DNA of 64,000 nt from Pseudovirgaria hyperparasitica (lineage: Eukaryota): assembly GCA_010093815.1 (NCBI GenBank), contig ML996565.1; one strand, 5' to 3'. Positions 4,101 to 49,863 of this stretch are shown here, one piece after another. A model generated the notes under the pieces. That model was not told the DNA's origin. It saw only the letters and a list, made by a program, of their open reading frames with translations, and searched no databases. Position 1 is the stretch's first letter. Every line of letters begins with the position of its first letter. Both the position numbers and the translations under genes were made by a program.

Positions 4101-6559
4101 ACGTCTTTGGTCGAGAAAGCTTGCTCGCCTTCAAGCTCGGGGGGCAGGTGTCCTTCTGGTGCATCGTTACAGAGAACATGTTGGACAGAGGACCACATCC
4201 TTCTTATACAGTCGAAAATACGGGCATGGAGCCATGCCCAATCGTTCCCAGTTTGAGCACTTGGCTTAGATGCGATCAGTTCCGAATAGAAACCATCTTG
4301 ACTAATGATATAACTAGACAAATGTCAGGTACGCCATCTGCGTGAATCAGTCGCAGTGTAGGAAAGGTCTTACGTAAGACTTGCAAAAATGCCATGCATG
4401 GGATTGCCATTGATTGCGAGAGATGAATTCGTCTCTGCGATACGTATGGTGGATTCAAGTTGCCCAACAAGCAGGCTCACCACACCAAAAGCTCTGCTAC
4501 TGTGTCTATGCCCGTCCTCTAGATCTTGATCCTGAGAGGGACGCCGCTCAACGCAATTTAGCTCATAGAGCCTCGCGACGCCATCGGCATGATCAGCACG
4601 TCCTGTTCGAAGCATAGCTTCATTCGCACGAACGATCAATTTGGTAGAAATACCAGAAGGCTCTGCCAGTGCTGGAACTACTGACTGCTTCATCACTGGA
4701 AGATGCGTATGCTCAGAGCTCAGGAAATGGTACTTTAGAATCATGCTGGCTAAAGTGCGAACATCGTCAAAGGCGTTCAGCATTAGATCGTACAGGTTCC
4801 GCAAGAGGTGATCACTGATGATCGAGATATTGAACGGCCATAAAGTCTGACCTCGAGCTTGCTTAGACAGGCAAGCACAGGGTATCCTCTTGTCTAGACC
4901 GGATCTCAAGGCGATTATAATACATTTCAGAGAGACAAAATGCCGCTGGTAAGGTGATGTCGGTCGAAGGTCCGAGATCCTTGACTGAATTATTGCCTGT
5001 AGAAAGTTTTTGTGCGCGTCAAGTAGTATTCGCTTGGACTCAGATTTCGAGGATTCTGGACTTTCAAGAGCCTGTAATTTCAATGTAGACTTCTCGACGT
5101 CCCGATTCAACGCAGCAGTCGCTGCCCTCAGTCTATCAAACAGTCTTTGAATGAGACCAAGTACCTCAGACCTAGCGTTTGCATCAGTATCGGCGATGAT
5201 GTTTGGCAAGATCTGTTGCAAGACTCGCAGTGATCCCACTGTAAATGGTCGTGCTATGAAAGCAGATGAGGTAAGTAGTGAAAATGCTGATAGCCTGATG
5301 GTCTGCGATATATCCCCAAGAAGGCGCGAAATGAAGGCGTCCGGTATTTCGATGACTTTTCCTTGTATTCGTACCGTCTTGCAATTTCGTGATTCTATTT
5401 GGGTCAGTATAAGCGTTTGCGAGATATGCAAATTCTACCATACTGACCAACATCGACGATGAGACCTATTTCCTTACCCGACTGTAATGCAGCAAATAGA
5501 AGTCCGATCTTGGCGGATGGGTGTAAAGTCTTTTCAGTGTACCACTTGACGGATGTATTACCTTCCATTACATCAACATAGTTTCCGAGATCGAGATCGT
5601 AGAGGAAAGTCAAATAGTCTTCTAAGTCAAAGGAAAATAAAGCCGGGAAAACAAGGTTCTTGTAGCTCTGCAACTCCTCTGAGTGTGCACTAAAACTTTG
5701 GTAGAATGGTATGACCCATGGAGGCGGTTTCTGGTCATCGTACACATCTGGAAGATCGTCCTTTTGCTTTAAGGAGTAAGTCAAGAGACTCGATACGAGT
5801 CTTCCAGCTGTATGCGCAGCATCATTGTTTGGGATACTGTTGAAGAGGAGTTGAAGCAGGTCTCTGAGGAGGGCAGAAATCGAGGAGATCCCCTTTAGTG
5901 TTTGATTCTGAAATAAGCCATATGAGGTCAGGAGCTCTCGTACACTTAAGATACCTTTCTGTAGGAACAATTCCAGGGCCTGTAGGGCTGGCTTCAATTG
6001 AGACCTACTCGTCCGTCCAGTGATGATCTTCAACAATTTTTGTATCACATATTCGTGCACCTCTGTCCTTCTGTCCGGAGGAACATCTTCGCGAAGAGTG
6101 GTGGTGAGGATCACTAAGAGCTGTCTCATTGATCTTGGCTTCACAACATCGGATCGTTCCAAAAAGAAAGACAAGGCCTGGAGCCAGACATCATTCGTCC
6201 AAAGACAGCCTTGTACGTTCTTGATTTTGGATTCGTGGCAAGTCTCCAGGACAGCACAAAGCGGATTACACGCAGCAGTTCGTTGGGATGCCGTCGAGTT
6301 TGGGCCATTCGCAATCTCAAGAAGTTCGGTAATGGCATTAACAAGGATGCTATACCAGGTCAATGTATTGATTTTCGCAAATACAGGTAGAAAACCAACA
6401 TCAGGTTTCAAATGAATGGTCACCTGCAGAGCGTCCTTACATATTCTTCTCGTTCGTATCTTCGCTGCTGTCATCCCCAGCTAAAATTATTGCCGACAGG
6501 TCACTGCCAAGCTGTCTTAGCACAAGGTCGTCGTTTACGATATCACGGGGCGGGCGCAT
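1153..6559 (-). CDS. TRM732: tRNA C32 2'-O-methyltransferase regulator Trm732/THADA (DUF2428, HEAT repeats), about 9 exons; start codon approximate
   Basis: ORF fragments 5404-6474, 4370-5431, 4046-4321, 3737-4042, 3425-3730, 2798-3355, 2031-2777 and 1153-1902 join via short GT-AG introns. They carry DUF2428-type motifs SWRALK, RHRGAF, TRRSGGIP, PQVHALNCLKDIF, WAIRNCGLMLF and LxDDDDEIRD. Confidence 0.9.
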
Positions 6560-6900: not shown

Positions 6901-8463
6901 ATGGATCCGTCACATATTCACACCTACAAGGAGCAAGAGGACGACTTCAACCTCTTGTTCACTGATACTGCGCTGGGCGAATATGGGACTAATGACGACT
7001 TTATACAACCTGCACAGCCGTCCAGTATACTTGTTCCACAGTCTCGCCACGTTCGAGGCGTTGCTTCGGACCAAGTGGGTATAGATAGGACACAAGCGCC
7101 AGCTTTGCGCAGTCCTTTACAAGAAGTCGTACCATCGGAAGCAAGACAATATGAAGAAGATATACAGTATCGGCTTACGACTGCCGCGGCGAACACCTCG
7201 GTGAGCCCTACACTTTCAAATGGGGACCTGATCAAAAATACGACTGGCACAGATACATCAAATGCACAGACTGGTGAGGTGGACGATGCGATGCGACAAC
7301 TCTTAGACATGTACAATGACCCTGATCCAGAATGGGACAGATTGATCCACGATATCGGTGAGTTGGGTCTCAGGATCAGAACAGGTGCCGATGAAGTGGA
7401 GCCATGGCCAGGCTTTGCGCCATGGGAGCAGACGGATACAAGACCTCTGGATGACTGGCCTCGACTAAGCCAGATGGGAATCTCAATGGAAGAGGCCAGT
7501 CTGATAATGTCCAGTATAGACGATTGGTTTGAGAGTACTCAAGCGACAGTCCTGGCAGATATAAAAAAACGTTTGTCTGTGCAAGATGTCAAGACGTTCG
7601 TCGAAAACGAGGTGATGATCCGCCTAGATGGGTACGGTGAACCGGATTCGAACACAGCGATGTCAAGACTGGGAGTCATGAGGGCTATAGTGCGTTTGTT
7701 CATCTATCGGCATCGTCGAAAGGTACAGGAGCTGAGAGACAGAGGGAAGCTTTCGGAGGAGCCTATGTTCGGGCCTCTACGTCTGGTCGACGAGATCAAT
7801 CAAGACGGACGTGTGGTCTGGTATCAAGACTTGTTTGTTGAGCAGAAGACATGCTACGAGCAATTCTTGGACGATTTGGCACGTCACTATGCTCCATATC
7901 TTGAAGACGGTGTATCCGGCGACCTTGATCTTCGGAGATTAGAGTTGAGGAAGAAGGGATGGCGTACGGTAACTAAGAGCGAAGACGATGGTTCCGATTG
8001 GACGCAGAGGTCTGATAATGGACGAAGAGTGTTCTGTATCTCTCCAGCAAGAGATGCTGCTCGCTGGATTCGTCTAGGAAATCGTCAGTTTGAACAAATC
8101 AGGGACGCATATATTCAGAAGAAGGAGCAAGTTTGGATATTTGTAATGCCTGTAAGTTGAGACCTGTCCGCATGTGTTAACCCAGTCTTACGATGCTAGG
8201 AGGACATGTATCAGGAGGCCAAAGACGTTCCAGGCCGAAGCCATCAAAAAGAGGATAGGTTTGACTTCATCCGCAGCATGAGGTTGAACACATCTCGAAG
8301 CCGTCAAGAGGCTGAGGCGCCCCCGTATCCACCACTCGAGTTGTCGTTAGAACAACTCGCAATGCTCCACGCAGACCGGAGCGAACCATTACTCGAGACA
8401 TGGGATCGTTTGGACGAGCAGTGGAAGAAAGAGGTGATTTGGCAGAAAGATGAGATGGAGTGA
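6901..8463 (+). CDS. Hypothetical protein, about 504 aa, two exons (intron 8152-8199)
   Basis: A 419-aa ORF is followed by a phase-0 GTAAGT..TAG intron that links in frame to the 8206-8463 ORF. No family recognised. Confidence 0.7.
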
Positions 8464-9737: not shown

Positions 9738-12700
9738 ATGAGACACTCCGACGTCTATACTGGTGGTGGCCGTGGTCATGCGCATCGGGAACCAATTGGT
9801 CCATCCGACACTTACGCTGAAAATATGGGAGAGCAACGCGGAATTGAATCGAACCAGGAAGCAGAGGCATATGCGTCTTCGGAGTCGTTTGGTACATCCG
9901 AACCACGCAGACCACTGCAACGAAGAGATTCAGGCTTCTCCCAAAATCGACGATATGACCCGGCTCGTCATGATCAGGAATCACCCAATGCACAAACTTC
10001 GATTAATGGAAAGATACCATATCATTATCAGCATCGAAATTCTCAACCTTCCCATCATGACTGCGATAGATTGGTGAATTGTCGATCTTCAGCGTCCAAT
10101 GAACTACTGCCTAAGGTTGAAAATGGCGATTTTGCTGAAGGACACTCATCGAGTGTTCAATTCTTCACCCATAAACCTGAGTCCCGTCAATTGAAAGCAG
10201 TAGAGTTGCCAAAATATCAATATGCATCGGAAAGAATGGAAGAAGCGGCTCTTAAAATGGCTCGAGTGCGGAAACAGCGTTTGGAGGAACAGAATAGGAC
10301 TGCCGTTGGAAAAGCCCGAAAATACCTCCACGATGCTCGTCCACTCGGCAGACTTACAAGCCCACAGGGAGTGTCGTACGCTAGGCAGCTCTCCAGTCCA
10401 TCTGCCGTAGCTCCTCCACGGTCCGCTCAGCCTAATCCAGCCTCGCGTACAAGAGAAGATCACACATCTAAGGGGGAACATGTTCATCTACCTCTTGATG
10501 ACAACGGTCTGAGACAGGTGAAACCATCCACCTTCGCCAGACAAGCGCGTATGAATGGCTCACAGGCGCCTCATCTTAAATCTCCTGACTATGAGTCGTC
10601 GTCTTCCGAATCTGTCTGTCCGAAAGTCTCAACCTCAGAGCGCACGGTTGGTATGCATATGCCTCGAAAAAGAAATTTCAGCTCTATAGCTGAAGACGAA
10701 GGCTCTGAAGAGCAAGACGACAGATCGTTGATCAGTGTTCCTGCAACAAGCTTAAGGGCTCCATCCCCTAGAAAACGAGTGGTTGTTGCGGATATGCAGC
10801 ATTGCCGCAATGATTCCCGTGATGCCACACTGTCCTCTGGTGCATCTAAAAGCCAGCAGTTAAGGGAGCAGAACCGACAACATGATAAAAGCGCACGTGA
10901 GCCGCGACAAAGAGGGCAGAGTACCACTAAATGCATTGAAATCGATGAATCCAAGCTTGCGCACTGTCAAACAGGTGCATCGAAAACACAAACCGCTACT
11001 CGACCACCTGCATTGCCACAAGCCATGAAGCCTGGACGAAATGCGGATTCGGCAAAGTCGTACTCCATCGGTCCAATCTCAATTGGTCCTACCAGAAAGA
11101 AAGTCAGAGTCGAAGAGATGCATCATTTGAAGGCTCCCGTGTCGCTTCAGAAACCAACATCTGGTCTCAGTCTGCCTAACAGTGTCCTTAATGACGAGAC
11201 TGTCTCCAAGAAAGTTCGCCCCAGGGAGGAGAAGGAGTCCAAGTCCTCTAGATCTGCCTCGTCAACAATTCGTTATCGTGGTGGTAGCTTGGCTAATGGG
11301 CCCCGAGGGGTTTCAAAAAGCATCGCTACACCAGAGACTCCTTTGAACCGTGCGATGCCAAATTTGGGACGAGCTAGACTGGTACAAAAGTTGATCAGCC
11401 GGAATAAGGGTCCGGACAATAGCAAAGTCGGTCGCTTGGTTGATTCTCCCACCGTTCCTCAGAGTCTTGCTCAGCCGGTATGCCAGTTGATGGAGAAGTC
11501 TTCTAAACCTCAAAATACCGCAGAGAGGGTAGAGGAGACTAGCGATGCTCAGCAATCGCAAGTGCCAATACCAGAGAAGATGGACACGAATATGCGAGAG
11601 CCCGAAGATGTGCCTCATACCACTCGCAATCATCAGCATATTGAAGTCATGTACAAACCCGTAAACGCAAGCTGTCACGTTGGCATGAAGTCTTCCAAGG
11701 CGAATGCAAACTCAAGTAATCCAGAGAAGTCAGAGAGTGTAAATACAACCGAGTCCGAAGTTGGTAAAACACTTGCGGCTATGAATTGCATTGCCATCGA
11801 GCCAGATGCCATCGAGTCTTCGAATTCTTGTCCCGATCCTGAACAAAGTGTCAGCTGTCAAAGACCAGCTCCGAAAGCAGACCTGGACGTATTATCTACA
11901 TCGACTCCAACGGGACCTTCCCTGCCTGCCCCTGCGTCACCCACGAGCGCCAAAGTATTGCCAGCACAAAAGGCTCCAACACAATCCCAAGTAGTACACA
12001 ACCTAGCAACGCTAGCTTGGTCGGAAAGTCCTGCTCCTACAGACGGGGTGGCTACACCGTCGCCAACTGCGAACCCACTGACAACATACTCCCAAAGGCC
12101 AGCACTTGCTCCTATCGCAGTCATGTCGCCCTCTGTGCCAATGTCAACTATATTACCCCACGCACCCGTAGCGAACATATTTCCCTCTCAGGCGTTGACT
12201 GTAGCCCCTTTATATGATCCATTACTAGCGGATGACTCGTCGCTTTTCATTCCAGAACCAAACGAAGTTCCAATGGCAGAGGAGCTACCAAGAGAGTCCA
12301 ATAGCCCCAGAACGAGCTTTACGTTTCCGGAAGATCTGACAATGCTAGAAGAAGGTCACGATATCAAACGTAGCATAGCCGTGAGACATCTAGAAAGAAT
12401 AACAAAGGAAGCAGAAAATAATCAACGGCGACAACGGCGAAATGAAGAGGTTCTGCGGATGGAAGAGATTTTCGAGAAGGCAAAGATAGAGCAAAATAAG
12501 GCCGAGAAGGCAGAAAGCGCAAGACTGGATGGGGAGAGGACCAAACAAGTCCTTCGTGACCAAGCCGCTCAGCACAAGTCTGCGATGTGTAAGGCCGATG
12601 AAGAGATGCGAGAGATCACGAGAAGACATAGAGACGGAGCTGACGAAGCACGTCCCGATGAAGAAGCGATTCCGCCATCATCGACAACCACGATAGCTTC

Positions 12701-14924
12701 GACTGCGCCCGCGGTAAATACATCGCTCGATGCCCCGACGGCACAAACAATGCACACTGTTTCTGGGAAGGGATGTTTAAACGCCGTTCGAAAGCAGCAT
12801 ATGGTTGGCACAGCAATTGGCCCAGACTCCACAGACCCTCAGCCCATGGTCAACGGCAATTCACAGACGACCGACCCCCGTCGAAGAAATTTGACAACCA
12901 CGGTCAATCCAGCATCGAGCGAATGTCACCCAAAGTCGGTCCATGAAATTATTGCTACTATCCAAAAGCAATGTAAGGAGCCAGCTGAACGGCACAGAGA
13001 ATCTGAATCAGTAGAAGAACGTAGGAGGCACCAACGTAACAAGAAGAAAAGATGCGGTGACGATGGTGCTTTTGGAGCAGAGAACAATTGTAAAAGCAAA
13101 GACCAAGAGCGGAGAAATTTTCCAGCGGCTCCTGATGGCCATGGTCTGATTGCTACCAACGGGATGGAGAGAATACTGAAGGATTCTGGAAACGATTATC
13201 TCGCTCACGAGAAATCTTCACATGCCCCTCTTGCCAACACAGACGAAGCGCCACCTCTGCAGAACCTGACCGAAACCTTCAAAGGCTTATCGAAGCAGCA
13301 GATATCCAACGTGAATAGCTTGGCTGGAGGAATCTCAGAAGCTACCCTCAGAAATCGTAAAACTCCATGCGGCAAGCCAGAAGCGCGTATCATGACATCT
13401 GAGCAGGTCCAACGTAGAAAGCAAGAGCGCGAAGCCCGCCTCGCGCTCGATACGCAGAAGGTCATCGCGACTAAGTCAAGATCAAATGAACCAAAGTCTC
13501 TTCTCCAAAGACTCGAGCATGCAGCCGGAACGCCTTCGTCTCCGCCAGTGGCTATTCCCGTGCGCAGCGAGACTGCGAAAGCCAACCCTGAAAGTGGGCA
13601 GCATGCTAGCACTATCATTGATGACCTCAAATCTCTCAGTAGTCACCATCGCGCATTAGTGCAGTGGCGAGATGATGGGATCACTTACAAGGAATGCGCA
13701 GAGCGGTGGGCACAACTAACCTCGAAGCGGCTGAGTGTGAGAACTGTTCGCGATCTTTATAGTAAGATCACTGGCACCTATAAGCAACGAAAAGGATCCA
13801 GAGGGCGTGAAAGAGTGAGACCTGTTGAATCTCAAACCCACAAAGGGACTCAAAAAGTCCTCAGTTTCCAGGTAACAAAGGAACGAGCGACAAATACTTC
13901 CAACAGTCAGCAAAGTGAGCGATCGCATACGCCCACGAGCGCTGATAGTAGTGGTGACTACCTGCATTACCTTCTCGAGGATGGCGATGAAGATTGTGAA
14001 CCGCAGGTTGAGTCATTGCTAAACATGGATCCTGGTATCGTCGATAGTGCGGGAAGCAGCAAGCGTCCAACAACAGGTGGCAAAACCATGAGCAACTTGG
14101 CTTATCAGGCCTACATGGCTTCTCTTGAAGCAGACGCCGACGTTGATTCGGCATCCGACGTCGAAACCATGCCCGAAAGCTCTGGTGATGAAGAGTGTAT
14201 TGTGCGTGAATCATCGCCAATAATCGACCGTGACACATGCCACTTCGTATACCAAGTAAAGCGCAAGTTTTGGGCCAATGGTGAAAACGAGGATGACGCC
14301 GAATGGTATATAGTTACCAAGAAGGACAAGTACGAAGACGTGCGCCAAGCGAATATTGCGGCAATGGCAGAGCCCGCAATCGAGCGGTTTGGGCATGCTT
14401 ACGGTCTCGATGTGATATCGCATAGTAGTGTTATTGACATGAAGACACACATGACTACTATAACCTGGCAGACACCCTGGGGCCATACCAAAGTCATGGT
14501 CGATCGATATTTGCGCACGCAGCGTAATGGAATTAAGCCTTGCACCAAGATGCATTGGCTACCGCGTCAGATGTACATTGTCAAAATCATGACAAAGACA
14601 ATGAAGAGCGAAGATGACCCTGATGACCCGGAAAACTTGCTGATCAGTGAGGAAGAAGCGACGGTCGATGACCCGCGAGTCTTCACGATACTAGATCAAG
14701 CGAACAGGGAGGCAGCCAAAAGGGTCGTAGACCTGACGACGAATGGAGAGAGTAGGCGTATTGACGATATCCAGAAGCGGGAGCAGGTAAAGAAGAGATG
14801 GGAAGCAGCGGTAGACGGCATGATAGAAGATGGCAGGAGTTTGGATGAAGAGTTTCGTGTAGGTGAGGAGACGGAGTGCCGGGTATGGGTTGAAGTGAGA
14901 GATGTGGAAGGACCGAGAAACTGA
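9738..14924 (+). CDS. Large intronless hypothetical protein (1728 aa): mostly low-complexity, with coiled coils, a possible Myb/HTH-like segment and a globular C-terminal region
   Basis: Uninterrupted 5.2-kb ORF, S/P/E/R-rich. The helical segment LVQWRDDGITYKECAERWAQLTSKRLSVRTVRDLYSKI resembles small fungal HTH/Myb-like modules (inference). Confidence 0.85.
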   Translation: MRHSDVYTGGGRGHAHREPIGPSDTYAENMGEQRGIESNQEAEAYASSESFGTSEPRRPLQRRDSGFSQNRRYDPARHDQESPNAQTSINGKIPYHYQHRNSQPSHHDCDRLVNCRSSASNELLPKVENGDFAEGHSSSVQFFTHKPESRQLKAVELPKYQYASERMEEAALKMARVRKQRLEEQNRTAVGKARKYLHDARPLGRLTSPQGVSYARQLSSPSAVAPPRSAQPNPASRTREDHTSKGEHVHLPLDDNGLRQVKPSTFARQARMNGSQAPHLKSPDYESSSSESVCPKVSTSERTVGMHMPRKRNFSSIAEDEGSEEQDDRSLISVPATSLRAPSPRKRVVVADMQHCRNDSRDATLSSGASKSQQLREQNRQHDKSAREPRQRGQSTTKCIEIDESKLAHCQTGASKTQTATRPPALPQAMKPGRNADSAKSYSIGPISIGPTRKKVRVEEMHHLKAPVSLQKPTSGLSLPNSVLNDETVSKKVRPREEKESKSSRSASSTIRYRGGSLANGPRGVSKSIATPETPLNRAMPNLGRARLVQKLISRNKGPDNSKVGRLVDSPTVPQSLAQPVCQLMEKSSKPQNTAERVEETSDAQQSQVPIPEKMDTNMREPEDVPHTTRNHQHIEVMYKPVNASCHVGMKSSKANANSSNPEKSESVNTTESEVGKTLAAMNCIAIEPDAIESSNSCPDPEQSVSCQRPAPKADLDVLSTSTPTGPSLPAPASPTSAKVLPAQKAPTQSQVVHNLATLAWSESPAPTDGVATPSPTANPLTTYSQRPALAPIAVMSPSVPMSTILPHAPVANIFPSQALTVAPLYDPLLADDSSLFIPEPNEVPMAEELPRESNSPRTSFTFPEDLTMLEEGHDIKRSIAVRHLERITKEAENNQRRQRRNEEVLRMEEIFEKAKIEQNKAEKAESARLDGERTKQVLRDQAAQHKSAMCKADEEMREITRRHRDGADEARPDEEAIPPSSTTTIASTAPAVNTSLDAPTAQTMHTVSGKGCLNAVRKQHMVGTAIGPDSTDPQPMVNGNSQTTDPRRRNLTTTVNPASSECHPKSVHEIIATIQKQCKEPAERHRESESVEERRRHQRNKKKRCGDDGAFGAENNCKSKDQERRNFPAAPDGHGLIATNGMERILKDSGNDYLAHEKSSHAPLANTDEAPPLQNLTETFKGLSKQQISNVNSLAGGISEATLRNRKTPCGKPEARIMTSEQVQRRKQEREARLALDTQKVIATKSRSNEPKSLLQRLEHAAGTPSSPPVAIPVRSETAKANPESGQHASTIIDDLKSLSSHHRALVQWRDDGITYKECAERWAQLTSKRLSVRTVRDLYSKITGTYKQRKGSRGRERVRPVESQTHKGTQKVLSFQVTKERATNTSNSQQSERSHTPTSADSSGDYLHYLLEDGDEDCEPQVESLLNMDPGIVDSAGSSKRPTTGGKTMSNLAYQAYMASLEADADVDSASDVETMPESSGDEECIVRESSPIIDRDTCHFVYQVKRKFWANGENEDDAEWYIVTKKDKYEDVRQANIAAMAEPAIERFGHAYGLDVISHSSVIDMKTHMTTITWQTPWGHTKVMVDRYLRTQRNGIKPCTKMHWLPRQMYIVKIMTKTMKSEDDPDDPENLLISEEEATVDDPRVFTILDQANREAAKRVVDLTTNGESRRIDDIQKREQVKKRWEAAVDGMIEDGRSLDEEFRVGEETECRVWVEVRDVEGPRN

Positions 14925-20108: not shown

Positions 20109-21830
20109 ATGGGGGGTCCTGTCATCTCCCGAATGAACGCCACACGTTCGAGGAAGCCTCGCTGGACTATTACGCGCCATGACAGTCGAACCACCAGCAG
20201 ATACATATCAAAGTACAGCTGTCTCGAGAAAGTCTCAGAAGGCCTCAGACAGGCCTTGCAACACGACGTACAATCGTTACAGAGTCTCTGTCTCACTTCT
20301 AAAGGTTGCCGCAACCTCGTGCAACCGATTCTTTACGCTCAAGGCTTGGAGACCTCATATGCCTTGAAGGACTCTCCTCAAGACTGGAGCGCAATTCTTC
20401 TTACGAGAACGCTACTCACGAACCCTCCTCTTGCGCAAAGAATCACGTCGTTGTCATTAATGACCCTTTCTTGCGGGTCCGACTTGGGCAAGGCTAAGAT
20501 AATCTGGAATGCACGAAGGAAACGGTGGGCGCCTGTGGGAAGGAAACTCTTAACCTTCTTCACCCATGAGGAACAGACGAAGCTTTTTGATGTTCTTGGG
20601 AATATCTCCGATATCCTCCTGGAATACAAGGCTATCCGACCCAAAGGCAGCTTGTCCCTCGAGCTTCGGGAAGCTATCTTCCCTGCACTGTTGTATCTGT
20701 GCCCGAATCTGAAGGATATACGTATCGGTAGCGTATTAGGTCCTTCGCAGCCCGATCCGATACTTATAGCGATTCGCCACTCTGGCCACAGCATACCTCT
20801 CCTGAGGAAGCTTACAACAGTGACATTATATCGGTGGCCTGACATAACAAATGTATACCAGCGTGAAACGAAGCAACAACTACTATATACATGGGACCTC
20901 CGAGATCTGCTACAAAGCCAGTCACTAACCCACCTGCACCTCGACTGGATCCATTCGCGGCCATTTCGTGGTCTCGACCTCGCCGTGAAATCGAACCTAC
21001 TGCACCTTGCAATCCGAGGCTTAGTAGCAACCAAAGACCTGGTCAAGCTCCTCGAATGCTGTCCCAGACTCCAACATTTTGAGTATGTAGTCATGATGGA
21101 CCATCCAGGACAGGAATGGGATTCCCGTGGCTTAGTCCCGGCTCTTTCAGAAGTTTCGCAGACACTTAAGTCACTCGCTCTCATACTACCACCACCTACA
21201 ACGCCCGAACCTGGGTGTATACCCGATCGACACCAGTACTATGTTACCGCAGATATGGTCAAGGACGACCATCAAGGCGAAGAGATCTGTAGCCTCGCCC
21301 CGTTCTCTCGGTTGACTAGTCTTACGATCGATATCCAAGAGCTAGCAATGATGGCAGCGCGGACAAAGAATGGTCTTATCCTTTCTTGTCTGCCGCCGAA
21401 CATTGAGGAGATCAAGTTGATATCAGGGGTGTCTATACTTGGTGCTTGTGACATATGCCAGTATGAATCTGTACTCTGCGCGACATGCGAGGAAGACAGC
21501 ATCCTCAGTCACCTAGTAGAAGAGCTTTTAGACGAGGGCCTGGCGCACCATGTTCCCAGACTTAGCAAAATTTACGTGCCAAAGCGCATTGATCTCAGGC
21601 CCAATACGGAACTTCAACGGCCTAGTCCACTGTTACCATTTCGTATGTCAGCATCGATCGAAATAGTTCAGGATCAAAGCGACACGAAGGTGTGGGAGCC
21701 AATGCAAATAGTTCTTTCCGACGCGGATATACGGACCGAGACAGAGGACTACCAGAATAACATGCACCATGTGCAGGATGGTGGATTCGAGCCACCATCT
21801 GAAGATTCGGATGAGGAAGATGATGGTTGA
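20109..21830 (+). CDS. F-box-like / leucine-rich-repeat (RNI-like) protein; true start uncertain
   Basis: 573-aa ORF with an F-box-like C-terminal half (LQSLCLTSKGCRNLVQPILY). It is followed by LRR-type units (CPNLKDIRI, LRKLTTVTL, SLTHLHL, CPRLQHFEY, TLKSLAL, FSRLTSLTI, LPPNIEEIKL) and an acidic tail. Confidence 0.7.
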   Translation: MGGPVISRMNATRSRKPRWTITRHDSRTTSRYISKYSCLEKVSEGLRQALQHDVQSLQSLCLTSKGCRNLVQPILYAQGLETSYALKDSPQDWSAILLTRTLLTNPPLAQRITSLSLMTLSCGSDLGKAKIIWNARRKRWAPVGRKLLTFFTHEEQTKLFDVLGNISDILLEYKAIRPKGSLSLELREAIFPALLYLCPNLKDIRIGSVLGPSQPDPILIAIRHSGHSIPLLRKLTTVTLYRWPDITNVYQRETKQQLLYTWDLRDLLQSQSLTHLHLDWIHSRPFRGLDLAVKSNLLHLAIRGLVATKDLVKLLECCPRLQHFEYVVMMDHPGQEWDSRGLVPALSEVSQTLKSLALILPPPTTPEPGCIPDRHQYYVTADMVKDDHQGEEICSLAPFSRLTSLTIDIQELAMMAARTKNGLILSCLPPNIEEIKLISGVSILGACDICQYESVLCATCEEDSILSHLVEELLDEGLAHHVPRLSKIYVPKRIDLRPNTELQRPSPLLPFRMSASIEIVQDQSDTKVWEPMQIVLSDADIRTETEDYQNNMHHVQDGGFEPPSEDSDEEDDG

Positions 21831-40900: not shown

Positions 40901-42862
40901 TTAGGTGCTGCAGCTACTTCTGAAAAGGCTACCGAATCTGAATCCGAGCCATCGGCTGAACCCAAGTCAGCAGGTGGATATCTGGGCTCGATGCTTAGAT
41001 GGCGCACATCTCAACGAGATCCGGAGGCTGCCGGAGACATGACAAAAGAGTCACTGCAACAGGATGACGCTTCACCCAGAGTAGACTACGAGGAGATCCC
41101 CTCACATGACCGTGAACCATTCAAGGTTCGGAACGTCAATGCGGGTTCCAAGGGTCAAAGTGGAAACAGCGATCCTCTGCCAAGCTCCAAAATTCAATCT
41201 ATCATCATGTCGGACGAGGAGACGCAGACGTCCCTTTCTGCTCAGGAGATCGACAAGATGCTAAAGGTTAAGCAAATGCCTCCATCAGTCATCGTACCAA
41301 GTCCGCCATCGAAGACTCTCACGACACATGTACGATCAAACAGCTCCAGCCCCCGAAAGTCTTACCCACCAACCAGTCTCGTGGTTGACACTGGTAAGAC
41401 ACAACCACGGAGACCAGGCAGCGCGGGCAGTCTGCGGAGCCGGGCCGCCACACCCCCTCCACTACCACCGGACCATAAAGAGGTCATCGCCGCGGCGCGC
41501 ACTTCTATTGCAGGTGCGTCAATGGGACCACCTACGATGCCAGCATCGGCGTACAAGAAAGAGCAGGTTCGGCCTCGTACACCCAATGTTCAAATGGGGA
41601 TTCCAAGCACTGTCACTTCCCCCTCTCGCTCAGGAACTACACCCCGTGCGAGAGCACCGACAATTCGAAGCGAGCTTTCCGTCCCAAGCACCCGTCGTTC
41701 ATCGATCTCTTCGTTTGCCTCGGAAATCGACCAACGATTCAATATTCCCCGCGCGACCCTCGGTGACCACTTTGACCCGAATACTACCGACCCCCGCATG
41801 ATTCAAGCAATCACTCAGACTATGATTGGTGAGTATTTATGGAAGTATACTCGAAAAGCTGGTAGAGGCGAAATGTCAGAGAAGCGGCATAGGCGTTTCT
41901 TTTGGGTGCATCCATACACACGTACTCTATACTGGAGCGAACAAGATCCTTCTACAGCTGGAAGGGCTCAGCTAAAGGCCAAGAGTGTCGCGATTGAGGC
42001 GGTACAGGTTGTGACGGATGACAATCCGATGCCTCCAGGCCTTCATCGGAAAAGCATAATCGTCATTACTCCTGGCAGAAGTGTTAAATTTACAGCTACG
42101 ACGGGCCAGAGGCATGAGACGTGGTTCAATGCACTTTCGTACCTTTTGCTGCGTACGAACGCCGAACGTGCGGATGAAGACGACAACATCACAGCTGAGG
42201 ACATCAATGAGTTCAACCCAGGCTATACGCGTAGTCCATCTCGACAAACAGGTCGATCGCGAGTGTCGATGGCTTCTTCGCATACAAATGGAAACCGGAA
42301 CCTGTCACCATCTCGAGCTCAGTACCCTACCTTGACTTCGAGGGGTGCGCCTGGCACCCAAAGAGTAACGAGTGCTCAGAGTGGCTCACAGGTCCCCCAG
42401 AATTCAGTGTCGAGTCGCTTCAGCAGTATCAGTGGCATATTCAGGCCTGGTTCTGGAATGCGAGGATCATTTGCCGGGCGGCGAAGTCGAAGCAGTGTGC
42501 GAGATTCATCTCTGTACGATGCAACTACAGTTCATGACTCAGCGGAGGATCTGCGACAGGTTATAGAGCAACAAGAACGGGATGCGGATAGGCTAGAGAA
42601 TGTGAGGGCGTGTTGCGATGGTAAGTACTGCATCTGAGGGTCACATCAGATGTTATTTGTTTTCAAGTACTAAATCAGGACCAAAGGTAAACACGACGTA
42701 GGCTCACTCTCTCGGAACGGGCGGCACTCCAGTGCTCAGGGCAGACATACTTCTTTCAGCTCTATGACACGAAGTATGCGCGGCCGCTCTGCTCAGCCTG
42801 ACTCGAGCCTTAGTAATCATCCTGAGAACGGGGAGGCGAGCGGGCATCACCACCACCATTAA
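37940..42862 (+). CDS. apsA: Cortical dynein anchor / nuclear migration protein ApsA (Num1/Mcp5 family); intron 42621-42686
   Basis: N-terminal coiled coil (HRMIQQLKNNIHREKTEK) and C-terminal PH domain (QAITQTMIGEYLWKYTRK..HRRFFWVHPYTRTLYWS). The spliced end reads RLENVRACCDG|KHDVGSLS. Confidence 0.93.
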
Positions 42863-45616
42863 GGACCTATCTCGAACCTATAATTTCCTATGCGTAATCT
42901 CTTTTGTAGAGCGATATATCAATATCCTTAGCCGGTTTAAGCTATAGCCCCTATCTACTCTTTCTCGTCTCTGTCTGAGCGGATGAAGTCTCCTTTGAAT
43001 GTTGTACGCCTCCTTGGTACCGCTCTCTAACATTTCCTTGCTTCTGTGCTCTGGCAATGCATTGCATTACTTCTCTTATGTCAGTACGCCTTTCCTATCA
43101 TCTTTCAGTAGCTCAGCGTAGCATCTTATTGGCCTGGTTGGAGCGTTTGTAATATTTTTGCTACGTATCAAAGGGCGAAAGAAGGCTTACGCACGGTGTT
43201 TGGTAGCTGGAGAACATGAGTGTGATGTTTCCCGGTGTGTTGTGTTTGTTATGGAGATACTGTCGATGCGTGATTGTCTCGTGAACGGTGTGTGATATGC
43301 TACATGCTGCGTTCTCCATACTTATGGGGATGTCCTGCGGCTTGCGCTTTAACGTCCGTCCTTACGTTGTATCCCGTAATCGTTTTCAGGTGAAGTCACC
43401 AGCCATGATCCTGTTCATCTTGCCATGCAGTCGACGCGTACTTGAGTTATACGTGGTGGTACGGAGACGACGATCCAAACCTCCCGCCCGCGGGCATTTC
43501 TGATAGTCTTACCTTCGTCGCTTGGCAGTTCGGGCCATTCGGAGATTCCTCGATCTCATCTAGCTAGCATCATTCATCTCGGTCATGATTATCATGCCCT
43601 TTCACTATTATCTACTCTCTTCAATGACTGAAGAACAAAATGCAAGGACACAAAGAGGGTCTGTAGTCGTCTACAACCTGATGACGTCGCTCATTTCAAC
43701 GACTGCACGGAACCCGCTGATGCCATCGAGTTGTAGAGCACTTTCACGTCTGATCTTATATCGATCCACATACTCGGCGGGCATCCTTGAACGATTTTGA
43801 AATATATTATACAGTCCTCATCTCTTGGCAGGGCATACGCGATAAGGCGTATGCTTACTGCTATTTGCGGAGCTGTTTGCGTCACTATAATTCCCAGTGC
43901 AGCATACGAGACATCGGAATGGGTAATCATCCGGCTAAGTGCCAAATGATCTCTCATCAGGCAACACCTATCCTGATGGACCCTACTTACCGTACAGCTA
44001 CAATTGCGGGTACCGATCTCTGCTATCGACATGGACAATGCGCCACAAATCTGTCGCTTACCACCCTGAAAGAATTGGCTTTGCTGAATGAGTATTTGCA
44101 AGGTGTCTCTTAACCAAATCGTACGAACCTTTTCACGGTTGCTGACCTCATATTTCCATGCTTAGCAAGCAAGACTTGCCTTTCCTCAGCTTCAGGCACA
44201 CCGATACATGACTACGTCTCGCACGACAGCTGAGCAGTCTGTTAATCTGCTCGATACTTCAGTGTGTCGCAGCGTCGAGTGCCCTGGACCATATATAGGA
44301 ATCCTTCTTGGCATTTCCAGAAGACTCCTTGTAAATAACGCTGATCCGACGTCACAATATGTTGGACAATAATATGCCAGGCAGGCATATTCGCCTTGTG
44401 GACATCGCAAACTCGTTGGAAACAAATTTGAAGGAATGATCATGATGGTATATCCTCCGCACGGAAACTTTCCTTCTGTGAGCCGCGCGGAACCTTAACG
44501 AACAACGGGACGCATAGTCCAACAGCTCCATGTCCTGCATCCCGCGTGCAGCTGCGGTTCGACTAACAACTGCATACACAGCGTGCTTACCTCCACCGTA
44601 GCCAAGGCGTACTTCTGATAAGCTGTTCGAGGCGGAATAAGCATCGTGACAGCCCAGCGTCTCCTAGAGCGTCCGAGGAGCGATGTATAGCAGTCTATCT
44701 ATATCGATGGAAGTTGTGGTCCTCGAATTGCACACGACACGGATAACCATGGGGCAAGCTGAGAGTTCGACTCTCAGTCCCACTCGTCAAAGTCGTCGAC
44801 CTTATCTGAACCGCGAAGGATGCGTCTGACAACCATCCTCGATCACAGCCCATCAGGATGGAGGATACACAGAGCCCCCACATTATGGCATTTTTCATGA
44901 CCCGGTGAGATGACGATGCAAGGGCAACAGGGCCAAGGATTGTCGGAATGTCGATCATCTGTGGAATCCTAAATAGTAAAGCCCGAGGCCTGCCAAGAGC
45001 GCCCACTGTGCCAACCCCTAGCACGTTGACCTTGTTGGAAGTTCGTGCACCATCGAGTATAATCTTCCAAACATGCGGAAGATCGCAGCCAGTCGACGCC
45101 ACTGAGGTCTTAAGGCTCGCGCACACCATGCTCAAGTTTGACGACCATTCCTGTTATCCACACTATCGCCCAATCATGTCCACTCATGCATTCTGCCTTC
45201 GGTGTGGGATCAATCAAATTGTATCGTTGAAACATTCCATGCTCGGGTGTACCTGAAAAAGAACGAATATCATCTCGCAACCATGGACACTTTGCCCGAG
45301 AGAGTACGTGTGTTATCAGAGGTTGGTACTATATCTACTTTTGGCAGATTTTTGCATATTGAAGGCCTGTCTTATCATTACATGGGTAGTACATCATCCT
45401 TGGTGTTCTTTGTATATCAGTCACGTCTGTCTCCTCCGTTTCGTGTCTCTGTCCAGTCCACTTCCAATCCGCTTTCAATCCATTTCCATTATCCAAATCT
45501 GCCACAGGTCGGCACCTCTCTTGATCAACTCGCTGGCGAAAAATCACACAAACACAAAACCAAATAGCACAACTTTGCTCCAAATCTTTTCTTGTCTCAT
45601 ATCCTCTCGTCAAAAA

Positions 45617-46195
45617 ATGGTCCAGCTTTCAAACCTTCTAGTGGGCTTGACCTTGGCCTCGATGGCTGTCGCCCTTCCTGCCGCAAACATGGACATTGCC
45701 CCGGCGGCTAACTATCGAAGACTTCCACAACCTGAGCACGATGCTGCTTGGGAAGCAACCCTTGTGAAGAAGCATGGCGGTCCAGGCCATCACGACGGCC
45801 CTCCAAAACCAGACCCAAGCTCTTCATGGGGGCACGGGAAGAACGAGAAGCGTCATGGTGGTAGGCCAGAGCACAACAGCCACCCGGGAGCACCTTCGCC
45901 TACAGATGGATACCATCATGGACATCTAAACAAGCGCCACGGAGGTCACGACGGACATTACCCACCTGGTGCCCCTCATCCCACAGGCAGCCCGCACCAT
46001 GAAGGGCAGTACGGAAGAAACTCTTTCATGAAGCGGCACGGACCTCATCACAACGGCCCCTGGCGCCCATCTCCTACCGGGTATGTGGCTCGCCATGAAG
46101 AACACAAGCCCCATCACCCAAAACCGACCGGGGGCTACGAGCCCCACCCAGGTCATGGCGACTGGCATGTGCCCCAACCCAAGCAGAAGGACTAA
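45617..46195 (+). CDS. Secreted His/Gly/Pro-rich Kex2-processed repeat protein (KEP-type peptide precursor), 192 aa
   Basis: ATG in CAAAAAATGG context and a hydrophobic signal peptide MVQLSNLLVGLTLASMAVA-LP. Repeats are separated by KK/KR/KR/KR/R and each starts with His. Confidence 0.85.
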   Translation: MVQLSNLLVGLTLASMAVALPAANMDIAPAANYRRLPQPEHDAAWEATLVKKHGGPGHHDGPPKPDPSSSWGHGKNEKRHGGRPEHNSHPGAPSPTDGYHHGHLNKRHGGHDGHYPPGAPHPTGSPHHEGQYGRNSFMKRHGPHHNGPWRPSPTGYVARHEEHKPHHPKPTGGYEPHPGHGDWHVPQPKQKD

Positions 46196-49100
46196 GACTC
46201 CGGGCCTTTGCCTCATCCAAACTGTCCCTCGCAATTTTCCGGCAACGATGCAAAATGTGTAAAATTCAATCTATACGGCAGCGTCACGCTGCTTGAAATA
46301 TCCTGATAGACTATCTAGGGCATGCATCAAGCGTTGACTGCTGCCACAATCCTTTGAAATGGAGATTCTGTCTCACTTTTACTTTTCTTGGCTGGAGTCC
46401 GTATTGCCTGTATATAGAGTGGAGCTGGATCACATAGGAAGAATTTGTATATGTTTCTCCAACACCCTCCTTCCATTGTTGGCAAGTTGACGTGATATGG
46501 CGGGAGCCCCCGGATGTGAGTGTTGCAGTTAACACTCTCCAATGATGGAACAATGGAATGCCATTCTGAGAGCAGCATGACCACTTTCCCACCACCGCGT
46601 CACCTCATTCATCTCAGCACCTCACAGCGATGCACAACACACACATAACAGCTGTATTTAGACAGACAACCTACCCGCTCCTCAGACCGGCCCCCAACAA
46701 CAACAAGGCACGCAAAACCCAACATACACACCAAACAGACGCCCCCAACCCGCCACCACGGTCTCAGAGATCCCGTCATGCATACGAGCGCCCACGCCCG
46801 CACGCGTACGTATGTGCGGCTCGAGTGGGTCGCTTAGGTCATAGAAGAATCGATCCTGCCTTATGCGCCCGTCAGTGTGGTTCTTTGTTTGCTCTTGCCT
46901 GTTCTTTTACTTCCAACTTGATACACCTGAGGGGGCGTGCAAAGGAATGCAGGTCCGCTGTATAGCGATATTAAGGGGATGGTGTTTGGTAATTAGTATC
47001 GTCGTCGTGTGTGTGGGTTGGCCAAGGACATCTCATCGGGTTACCGAAGTAGGGAAATTTTATGAACCAGGTAGGGGATGATAATGTTTCTGTGGGGCAG
47101 GGCTGGTGAAGCTAGCATGATGAAGTGTCCGTTGTTGGTTGGGGTAGAGCTTTGTCGTTTTGTGTTGATGGGATGAATGATGATTGGGGTCCAGAGGTGT
47201 GGAATGTGTGGGAGTGTGGAATGGGGGCGTCCCGGTGGCGCGTTTCAGGGGCTGCTAGACTGGGATCTGATCAGCTACAGACGGGAGGCCTCGCTCTGGT
47301 GTAAGCAGTAAGCGTATCAGGCTGCGTCGTGTGTGAATGTGGATGTGGATACGGATGTAAACAACCATGGCTGGATGTTTGCAGCTGAAATGATACCTAT
47401 TACCCCCTGCCCTCCAGTGCGCCGAGTGGGAGGAAGATTACGCACCGTACCGCACCGCATCGCGTTGCACTAGCGTTAGTCGGTGCCGGCGCTTGTAATT
47501 AGCTGTCGGACCCACCCGGACGGAACTTATTAGGAGTCCATTTATTGGTGGGACTGGAGTGCTATTGGGCGGGTATATCGTGGCATGCTTGGGCACTTTA
47601 TATCCTAGCTGTTCTACAGACAGATTGATCAGATATTAATGGTGCCGGGTAATTAGCTGAATGTGATATGAGTCCATGAGCAACGTCTTAATATTTAGAC
47701 TTGGTTCGATATGTTCGACCTAGCGTGCCTAGCGAGGCGAGGTCGACTATAGCATTCCAAACGTCATATCTCATAGCTTTGAAGCAATCTAATAAGGACC
47801 GTTGAGGTCGTTGGGCTGGAATGGAATTCATCGAGCATATCTACATTCAGAGAGAGACAAGGGGCTTAGTGTGTACTAACGGATGTTTCGAACAACTGGG
47901 GCCATTGCCTTTCGTTATCATGCTAACAGTGAAGCAGCTCAAGAAGTAGCTTCGGGCTGAGCATTCGAGCAAGGCAATCACACTACACATGAAACTTGGG
48001 AGAGGGATAATTACCAATTTGTCTGTATTGTACACTACGGCGAGCGGTGAAACCACATCCTCCGTGCGGAGGTTCCAAAGTTCAGGACATCGGTCCGGCT
48101 ACTAATATGCAATGAAAACTTTTTCACAGCAGTTTATTACTCGAACTGGCAGAGGGTCCCCACATGCAGACATGCTTTCGCAGTAACTCACGGGCATGAA
48201 TGGACGGGGAAAAGGTAGATGGTATTAACGGGGAAATGTCTGACCCCAAAGATCAGCTCGCTAATTTTACCATAGATAGAACACACTTGGCCGCTTGATT
48301 GCCATCGGAATCGGCCATATCTCATTAACATCATTGCCGACTGGGACACAGCATTATGTACCCAAGCCACGTAGATTATTACTTCACTGATAGTGTGCTC
48401 GTAAAGCCCTTCAAAATGTCGAGCAAGTCGTCTAGAACCCATGTCATATCCTGAGAGCTGAACTCAACCGTGCCTCGCGAACATACCTAAGCGACTTCCG
48501 CACATCAAAGGCAGGGTTCTAAACACATGAGAAGCCTCCCTCAAGAGAACACTACGCAAATCTTTACTTCTAGATCCATCGCCGCCGAACAGAATCCCAT
48601 GGCTCGGGGCTCCGGCCCGCTCAATTACCTATCTATCGTCCCGATCCACCCTGTCTATGCACCACACATTCATTAAGTACGCAGTACTCGGGGATGCGGT
48701 TCTCGCCTGGAAGAATACGCAGTGCAGATATACTGTCCTAGATCGTGATGCATCGCTTGCATCTCAACGTGGTTGAGCCCTGTAGGCGTTCTCGCCAGCT
48801 TGGGCATTATCATTGTACGAGGGGGCAAAATGCTCGGAACCCAAAGTCTGCACATGCGTATACGAGTAATAAGCATTCACAGTCCTGTCAGCAAATACGC
48901 ACATGCAATGAATGCATCATCAACATCGCGATGCACGCCGTGGTACAAATAAACAGGCATGCAAAACCAGACCTCAGCCTCGCCCCTCGGAATCACCCCC
49001 ACTGCAACCTCCCTATCTCATACGAACAACAACTCATCACAAAAACTATATCGATTCCATAGTATCATGGCCCTGCCCAGGAAGCCCCCAGTTCCCACTA

Positions 49101-49863
49101 GCGCACACTAATTTCAGCCTCAAGTCACACAGTGATCGACATCAGCCTGCGATTTGCGTCCGGTTATGCAGTCAGCATACTTTTCTAAATATATATGCTA
49201 GGATATGGTGACGCACGAATGTAGATCGCTAACGTGAGACATATGTTGGAGGAATGTTGTGTCCTAAAGATCTTGTGGAGGAGTAAGAGTTAGTATATTC
49301 TAGTTATGGTTGTCGTGGTGGATGTCTACGTCATGGCTTGTTTTATGGAGCCGTGGTTCAGGGTTTAAGCGTGCAACGCAGTATGGAGGGCACGTGTATC
49401 TTTGGAGAAATCGTGGCTTCTGCGTCTGCTTCTGCTTGTGTTGATCTATCGATCTAGAGATGTGTTTGTGTACAGAGAGTTCTAATGCTGCGATGGCCGG
49501 GGATGACTGAGTCATAGCATCTTTGTGAGATCTTATATCTTAGACAAGATCGAACTCAAAGCGAGGACTGGGCCCATGATGTTACGTCTACATCGTGAAG
49601 GCTTCAGGGCAAAGGCCATAGCGTGGGCAGAACACGCAGGCGCAACGTAGAAGGATACTACCGTTTGTGATGCTCCATATTTCAGGAGATAACGTCGTCT
49701 CAAACCTCGTACTTTCGCGACGGGACATTGTTAATAGTATGCATGATCTTGCAGAGATATGCATGTCAACGTTCGCGACGCCAGACTCCTAATCCCACAT
49801 CCCAAATTTATCCTTGGTATGTTCTCCAGCCCAATAAGGAACCGGGTGTCGTTAACATAGCAA

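Follow-up and report, generated by a model that had tools for sequence, protein, structure and literature searches.

A histidine-first precursor gene of the KEP type in a filamentous ascomycete: a candidate source of secreted metal-binding peptides

From the analysis of a 64,000-nt stretch of DNA (the window), whose host is a filamentous ascomycete, it was concluded that the open reading frame at 45617-46195 (+) is an orphan gene of the KEP type, a large known class, in which a conserved His opens each of five units. The gene is real and apparently transcribed. Processing of its product into three or more peptides with an N-terminal His (His-1 peptides) was judged probable, and the released peptides would almost certainly bind metals in vitro, Cu and Zn being likely partners on chemical grounds. 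The chances for and against a biological metal role were taken to be nearly balanced, leaning slightly to the negative. The reading preferred here, adopted tentatively, is that a lineage-restricted KEP-type precursor gives rise to extracellular peptides which bind metals, are capable of redox chemistry and can be switched by pH.

The gene is a single open frame of 192 codons on one exon, and the encoded 192-aa sequence (P0001) is identical to a called protein in NCBI, UniRef and nr, where it forms a cluster of one. The precursor is Cys-free; past residue 19, Pro accounts for 17% of the chain, His for 16% and Gly for 15%. Residues 1-19 (45617-45673) probably constitute a signal peptide cleaved after A-V-A, as judged from hydropathy and the A-x-A rule: the 11-residue hydropathy peak was 2.13 at the N-terminus, with values of -0.17 or lower beyond residue 25. 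The residue following the predicted cleavage site is Leu, and no hydrophobic C-terminal anchor signal was found by hydropathy. The pro-piece (residues 20-35, 45674-45721) ends in NYRR, and the spacer after it (residues 36-50, 45722-45772 with the terminal KK at 51-52) starts with LP-QP and continues with Glu-His.

The array of units follows on the same strand. Unit 1 (45773-45847; 25 aa, PKPD core) stands after KK52 and carries four His, at positions 1, 6, 7 and 21. Unit 2 (45854-45931; 26 aa, PSPT core) stands after KR79 and has six, at 1, 7, 10, 21, 22 and 24, and unit 3 (45938-46030; 31 aa, PHPT core), which starts with H-G-G-H after KR107, also has six, at 1, 4, 7, 14, 20 and 21. Unit 4 (46037-46090; 18 aa, PSPT core), after KR140, holds three His at 1, 4 and 5, and unit 5 (46094-46192; 33 aa, PKPT core), after the monobasic R159, holds seven at 1, 4, 7, 8, 18, 21 and 25. 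KK52 and R159 are non-canonical sites; the four other dibasic sites are canonical and end in R. A His opening a unit was found directly after four of the five dibasic sites, and a second His at position 4-7 accompanied His-1 in 5/5 units. The P-x-P-[T/D] core occurs five times, once in each unit, with Thr or Ser adjoining Pro in every core. His makes up 19% of the unit array (26 per 140 residues), and the units contain Tyr, Trp and HH. Behind the signal-peptide-like start and short pro-region, the five Cys-free units quoted in the initial annotation were recovered letter for letter, and its description of each unit as a basic site followed by His, with 3-7 His and a P-x-P-T/D core, proved right for all five. 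The fifth dibasic site, RR35 in the pro-region (NYRR followed by LPQPEH), had been overlooked.

The arrangement was compared with shuffled sequences. When residues 20-192 were shuffled 200,000 times, His stood after at least four dibasic sites in 31 of the shuffled chains; dibasic pairs by themselves were only mildly enriched (9,897 of 200,000 reached five). Five P-x-P-[T/D] words were obtained in none of 100,000 shuffles of residues 53-192. When the junction was excluded, five of the ten unit pairs were more similar than their shuffles (p<=0.013), and the remaining five gave p values of 0.058-0.76. The units are related yet degenerate and probably arose by duplication; the junctions are then not independent events. 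Among 70 unit-pair comparisons in seven anchor columns, which had been picked for conservation, 35 synonymous differences, 19 identical codons and 16 residue changes were counted. The P1 Arg is encoded by CGT, CGC and CGG, and His-1 by CAT and CAC. Such synonymous turnover beneath retained residues, a stronger argument than the shuffle counts, is suggestive of selection on the protein since the units were duplicated. Outside the junctions, a basic residue was followed by Pro in five of nine cases (p about 0.01), a count that is not independent of the core motif.

Contigs of two runs, X1 (45010-46115) and X2 (45077-46441), span the gene without gap or joint. The gap-free stretch under them (45010-46441, strandless) is a probable transcript that would include a 5' leader and a 3' UTR of roughly 250 nt. 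Contigs of both runs skip GT..AG-type stretches in two neighbouring genes, and because of these spliced joints they were taken to be RNA-derived, so that the gene would be transcribed without an intron. The two runs belong to one sample of one study, possibly the source of the genome itself, and are therefore not independent; their contig depth cannot rank expression. No RNA run was listed as containing the gene in the run search. The initial annotation had named a missing transcript as grounds for abandoning its proposal, and intron-free coverage by transcript-like contigs was found instead. Seven upstream ATGs lie at 45073-45382, inside the stretch under the longer contigs, and the main ATG (context CAAAAAATG) lies downstream of a CT-rich tract. 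Given these ATGs and the tract, the major transcript start is probably nearer to the gene than the contig ends imply.

Upstream of the gene lie Vps34, Nse4 and a Num1/ApsA-like gene, and downstream of it GH47, a hydrolase, Ku70, ferrochelatase and an MFS transporter, the labels being from Pfam and the finer gene names our own reading. Several further features of the window were recorded. At 43600-44180 an X1 contig skips 44079-44128, whose CT..AC ends mark a minus-strand intron, and no convincing spliced protein frame was seen; this transcript is possibly antisense or non-coding, converging on the 3' end of the Num1-like gene and diverging from the precursor gene. Directly downstream of the precursor gene a 998-nt X1 contig (46147-47144) runs past the X2 contig end at 46441 and represents either an isoform with an extended 3' end or another transcript that is unannotated; its region contains imperfect inverted arms, CA-rich and GT-rich. 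Contig joints also confirmed an intron at 42620-42686 in the Num1/ApsA-like gene, close to its 3' end, which lengthens its frame, and a minus-strand intron at 49146-49215, about 49.2 kb, downstream of the GH47 frame. A 1,728-aa frame with strong purine skew (9738-14924) had no Pfam match at E<=0.01, and the same was true of 5404-6474, 6901-8160 and 20109-21830.

The searches for relatives returned the precursor itself. Against 5.8 billion proteins, 1 of 210 candidates of near length passed, which was the precursor, as was the single one of 209 candidates that passed when residues 45-192 were used at E<=10. None of 404 candidates passed in the homologue search among longer proteins, and phmmer against 1.84 billion representatives found the precursor alone; the low complexity of the sequence lowers the sensitivity of all these homologue searches. 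No match to the precursor was obtained in Pfam or, at E<=10, among PDB sequences. In the ESM Atlas the best feature scores were 0.78-0.80, below the lead threshold, with all TM-scores under 0.5, and no usable match was found for residues 48-160. The 80 pattern matches in metagenome contigs yielded no confirmed case. The DNA pattern for KRHG-KRHG-KRH hit at least 119 metagenome stretches, and among the matches listed none was precursor-like by eye; at least three in-frame K-R/S-H words were present in 56 of 119. In viral contigs the pattern of three KRH hit 123 stretches, 63 of them in frame and almost all simple repeats. Within the genome itself the single match was the precursor locus, with no paralogue. 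Paired KRH patterns gave 49 and 46 matches there, at control level, with no paralogue among 20 of each, and the PxPTG-Y pattern gave 106, also at control level, with no paralogue among the loci examined. The proposal that no described family was recognisable thus stood for the sequence, and not for the architecture, which is that of the described KEP class. One metagenome contig, Ga0302322_100227816 (L219), was noted on its own account: its 142-aa frame opens with a signal-peptide-like stretch and carries K-R-H-G in each of three near-identical repeats of 27 aa, and this frame is unrelated to the precursor.

The genome encodes a full-length kexin with catalytic, P and transmembrane parts, as well as two DPP-IV-family matches. 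The cleavage sites were scored with the S. cerevisiae Kex2 matrix (Table 1 of PMC2515848). The scores were 0.21 for NYRR and for FMKR before unit 4, 0.15 for NEKR before unit 2, 0.03 for LNKR before unit 3, and 0 for both LVKK before unit 1 and YVAR before unit 5. Since only the KR sites and RR35 score, good support exists for three His-1 peptides, from units 2, 3 and 4 (or 4 together with 5), and as many as five may be formed. Five His-1 termini had been claimed initially; those at the three KR sites are well supported, but those at KK and AR score nothing in the yeast matrix. KK is a lesser Kex2 site according to PMC6339444. Unit 5 may stay joined to unit 4, giving 52 aa with 10 His, because R159 is monobasic. 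YVAR is an inexact match to the LxxR motif used for fungal effectors. A preference of Kex2 for Leu at P4 is not borne out by the matrix of PMC2515848, which gives Leu only 0.09. In a single-sequence structure model the chain was disordered save for a helix at residues 5-14 (pLDDT 52.6, pTM 0.13), and such predicted disorder would leave the cleavage sites accessible. The secreted Kex2-type polyprotein of the initial annotation agrees with the dibasic layout, the kexin in the genome and the intron-free transcript-like coverage, secretion itself being predicted.

Acidic or small residues are favoured at P1'/P2' of Kex2-cleaved sites (PMC2515848), so the preference of the protease does not account for His at the junctions. 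A leader with KR before His gave secretion at a middling level in Pichia, the cut site being unproven (PMC3777899, Table 2). Kex2 works in the late Golgi (PMC9769878), and the His1 methyltransferase of filamentous fungi resides in the ER and requires a free His1 (PMC10349129). Because the two are thus separated, the His-1 termini should be unmethylated, unlike those of LPMOs. X-Pro dipeptides, a Ste13 signature (PMC6339444), occur after one of the five dibasic sites only, namely RR35 with its LP-QP. At 45734-45766, Ste13 trimming of LP and QP together with a cut at KK52 would yield an 11-aa acidic Glu-His peptide. If the RR35 spacer is trimmed and KK52 is cut, this spacer peptide would be a sixth product with a His-2 motif, of the tighter Cu-binding class.

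The published KEP definitions were applied to the precursor. At least three units of 8-100 aa between KR, KK, RK or RR are asked for by Umemura (PMC7329392) and at least four fragments upon KR/RR cutting by Le Marquer (PMC6339444); the precursor has five dibasic sites, gives five fragments upon KR/RR cutting, and has the probable ER signal peptide of KEPs by hydropathy and the A-x-A rule. A rough ungapped emulation of the repeat filter placed 1 of 10 fragment comparisons below 1e-4, self-identity being at most 19% at any lag. With values so low, the published pipelines might miss the precursor. The KEP catalogue contains 7,878 entries, of which 2,560 are without homologue (PMC7329392). The words metal, copper and zinc were absent from the main text of PMC6339444, PMC7329392 and PMC9769878. 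No paper joining Kex2, histidine, copper and secreted fungal peptides was found, and Kex2 was unmentioned in the metallophore literature searched; few subscription papers were covered in either search.

The computed charge of the units is about -1 at pH 7.4 (+0.7 for unit 4) and +4 to +8 at pH 4.5, and their masses without modification were computed as about 2572, 2766, 3320, 1967 and 3822 Da for units 1 to 5. Proglucagon also frees several His-1 peptides at basic sites and has no known metal role, so the repeated KR before His is in itself no proof of metal binding. Binding in vitro would not prove a role either, because any peptide with 3-7 His binds metals. At micromolar levels the Cu(II) affinity of His-1 peptides is below that of peptides of the His-2 type and of the His-3 type, and their Cu(II) complexes are redox-active (PMC11220758). 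No unit has His at position 2 or 3, so the ATCUN motif (His at position 3) is absent; loss of His1 would, speculatively, expose GGH in unit 3 or EEH in unit 5. The histidine brace is an N-terminal His chelate with a second imidazole in T-shaped geometry (PMC10952591). The units carry the brace residues, His-1 and a later His, but no fold in the model, and no folded brace-family domain (LPMO, CopC, X325) was matched in Pfam or PDB. The analogy with the histidine brace drawn initially was not supported by this comparison: known braces are folded proteins, the precursor is predicted to be disordered, and the Cu(II) affinity of His-1 peptides is comparatively low.

According to Pfam on the window, the precursor gene has neither a metal transporter nor a gene for a metal enzyme beside it, and about 55 kb separate it from the nearest ZIP-family match. 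Elsewhere in the genome an Aspf2/Pra1-family gene lies head-to-head with a ZIP transporter (L306, G000:C20:410242-413842), in the aspf2-zrfC arrangement. With the ZafA consensus taken from the available text of PMC6070888, the aspf2-ZIP intergenic region has a motif with one mismatch, and the best motif at the precursor gene has two mismatches and lies 1.5 kb upstream, which is the background level of the window. Upstream scans for ZafA, Mac1-like, GATA and STRE motifs gave nothing clear, and no clear zinc- or copper-response element was seen; the only TTTGCTC sits in the 5' leader of the precursor gene. Five GCCARG hexamers, which are PacC-like, form a weak cluster at 44307-44997 (strand not assigned). 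Five observed against 0.75 expected was a count with post hoc boundaries; with boundaries fixed at up to 1,300 nt from the ATG, four were found at the precursor gene against 0-3 for 12 other frames of the window. Their density is six in 1,800 nt upstream of the precursor and five in the 1,815 nt between aspf2 and ZIP. The cluster may be due to chance or be part of a divergent transcript.

We proposed the following sequence of events. The signal peptide would direct the precursor into the ER, and late-Golgi kexin would then cleave at RR35, KR79, KR107 and KR140, and perhaps at KK52 and R159, with Kex1 removing the basic tails, as expected from KEP biology. Three to five unstructured peptides of 18-52 aa would be freed, with the N-terminal His free and unmethylated. 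From peptide chemistry, these would bind Cu(II) or Zn(II) through the chelate of N-terminal amine and imidazole and through more imidazoles, the prolines favouring loose multi-His binding. The peptides would act as extracellular, moderate-affinity, redox-capable, pH-switched metal binders, either at the wall or where the fungus touches another organism, serving metal buffering or metal-assisted antagonism and not tight metal capture with dedicated uptake. The charge shift from -1 at pH 7.4 to +4/+8 at pH 4.5 makes pH-switched action outside the cell the most likely mode. Analogues point to the same two roles. The Gly/His-rich shepherin I binds Cu and Zn via shifting sets of imidazoles and is antifungal with Zn (PMC10698721). 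The His-containing tail of a fungal AA14 LPMO (PcoAA14A) binds Cu and inhibits fungal spores, an effect depending on its cationic patch (bioRxiv 2025.11.04.686606). Against this proposal, the peptides are near-neutral at pH 7 and lack the cationic patch of the LPMO tail; moreover, no homologue was found, KK and AR score 0 and LNKR 0.03, no metal gene is adjacent, and no clear zinc- or copper-response element was seen. Six KEP knockouts of Coprinopsis, too, showed no phenotype in axenic culture (PMC9769878).

Five other explanations were weighed. The protein might be secreted whole or partly cut, as a disordered, probably O-glycosylated, His/Pro/Gly-rich wall or matrix protein, in the form of a metal sponge, an adhesive or a cross-linked coat. 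Its low complexity, the Thr/Ser beside Pro in every core and the zero scores of two of the five junctions are consistent with such a protein, and structural constraints block some predicted Kex2 sites (PMC2515848) and Ustilago Rep1 peptides function in attachment (PMC5293756). The four canonical R-ending dibasic sites on a disordered chain, four of the five dibasic sites being followed by His, argue for cutting instead, and neither Cys nor a hydrophobic anchor signal at the C-terminus is present, so we regard this explanation as doubtful. Receptor-read signals or effectors, own or foreign, in which His-1 and P-x-P-T are recognised and metals are incidental, as in the proglucagon family, were considered unlikely. 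A conserved N-terminus and core are what a ligand family would show, and the upstream Ste13-type signature fits as well. Alpha-pheromones of Dothideomycetes have a Cys pair or a PYGxPxG core; the precursor has neither, its units are far more divergent than pheromone repeats, which are near-identical and have XA/XP spacers, and 26 His per 140 residues exceeds the need of an epitope. The characterised KEP peptides are nevertheless mating factors, virulence factors and mutualism modulators (PMC9769878).

In its strong form, the initial annotation implied a ribosomal metallophore which has a true brace and collects Cu, Zn or Ni so that they can be taken up. The constant pairing of His-1 with a His at 4-7 is compatible with it, short synthetic peptides are able to mimic the brace (PMC9202009), fungi possess non-LPMO brace proteins such as X325/Bim1 (PMC10349129, PMC10952591), and the GCCARG density equals that of the aspf2-ZIP region. 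We hold it to be improbable, given the lower Cu(II) affinity of His-1 peptides (PMC11220758), the lack of a fold to pre-organise a brace and of a linked transporter, and the presence of the Aspf2-ZIP pair with its better ZafA motif. That the gene is an orphan, either young or in decay, and that its product does nothing specific was judged highly improbable: neither homologue nor paralogue was found and the junctions are eroded at both ends of the array, but the signal peptide and frame are intact, transcript-like contigs cover the gene, and the codons show synonymous turnover. The smallest chance of all was assigned to a RiPP precursor of the dikaritin type on which a DUF3328 (UstYa) oxidase would act in trans. 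Di-histidine motifs occur in the two widespread KEP types G-3 and G-8, which go with DUF3328 genes (PMC7329392), the genome has 27 UstYa matches, and the units hold Tyr, Trp and HH. On the other side, none of the 27 is near the locus, the nearest on the contig being about 0.8 Mb away, no DUF3328/UstYa gene was seen within about 15 genes and no tailoring gene nearby, the neighbours are housekeeping genes, and the units are long and divergent.

The preferred reading, that of pH-switched metal-binding peptides outside the cell, can be extended, although this extension is itself speculative and more probably wrong than right by some distance. Kex2 cleavage would then be a switch which turns a weak binder in the ER into unmodified, brace-like, redox-active Cu/Zn peptides in the late Golgi; these would be ribosomal metallopeptides made without a tailoring enzyme, and such systems possibly evolved several times. 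If the host parasitises a rust, the peptides could conceivably help it to attack with copper, or to compete for metal, where the two meet under acidic conditions. Fungal KEPs have been catalogued by the thousands, and almost none has an assigned function. The extension predicts that the protease cleavage itself makes the active metal site. If true, metal handling would join the known roles of KEPs, and the histidine brace would gain a natural counterpart among peptides; if false, the gene would be another orphan KEP from a single genome.

Finally, the precursor was compared with the known systems. Like KEPs, it has a probable signal peptide, a short pro-piece and multiple units, each of 8-100 aa, set off by dibasic sites, and no homologue was found for it, as for 2,560 of the 7,878 catalogued KEPs; the units of KEPs are near-identical, whereas those of the precursor are degenerate and all His-first. 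The dikaritins (ustiloxin, phomopsin, asperipin) share this layout, but the short conserved Tyr core of dikaritins is missing from the units. Secretion, predicted for the precursor, and richness in His are shared with the Pra1/Aspf2 zincophores and with the Serendipita DELD proteins, which bind metal. Both of these are folded and are not cut into peptides, the Aspf2-family gene of the genome lies elsewhere, and the precursor locus has no HRXXH-family Pfam match and no adjacent ZIP. The predicted units resemble histidine-brace proteins in a free N-terminal His and further His downstream. LPMO, CopC, X325 and Bim1 are, however, folded proteins whose His1 becomes free when signal peptidase cuts and, in filamentous fungi, is then methylated within the ER (PMC10952591, PMC10349129). 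In the units, by contrast, Kex2 would free His1 at a later stage, on peptides that have no structure and of which one gene yields several. The units, as predicted, resemble shepherin I, histatin 5 and the PcoAA14A tail in being short, unstructured, multi-His and Cu/Zn-binding, and GGH words are common to shepherin and the units, with no evident relationship in sequence. The tail of the LPMO is cationic, as is histatin 5, whereas the units are near-neutral at pH 7, Pro-rich and His-first, and originate from a fungal polyprotein.
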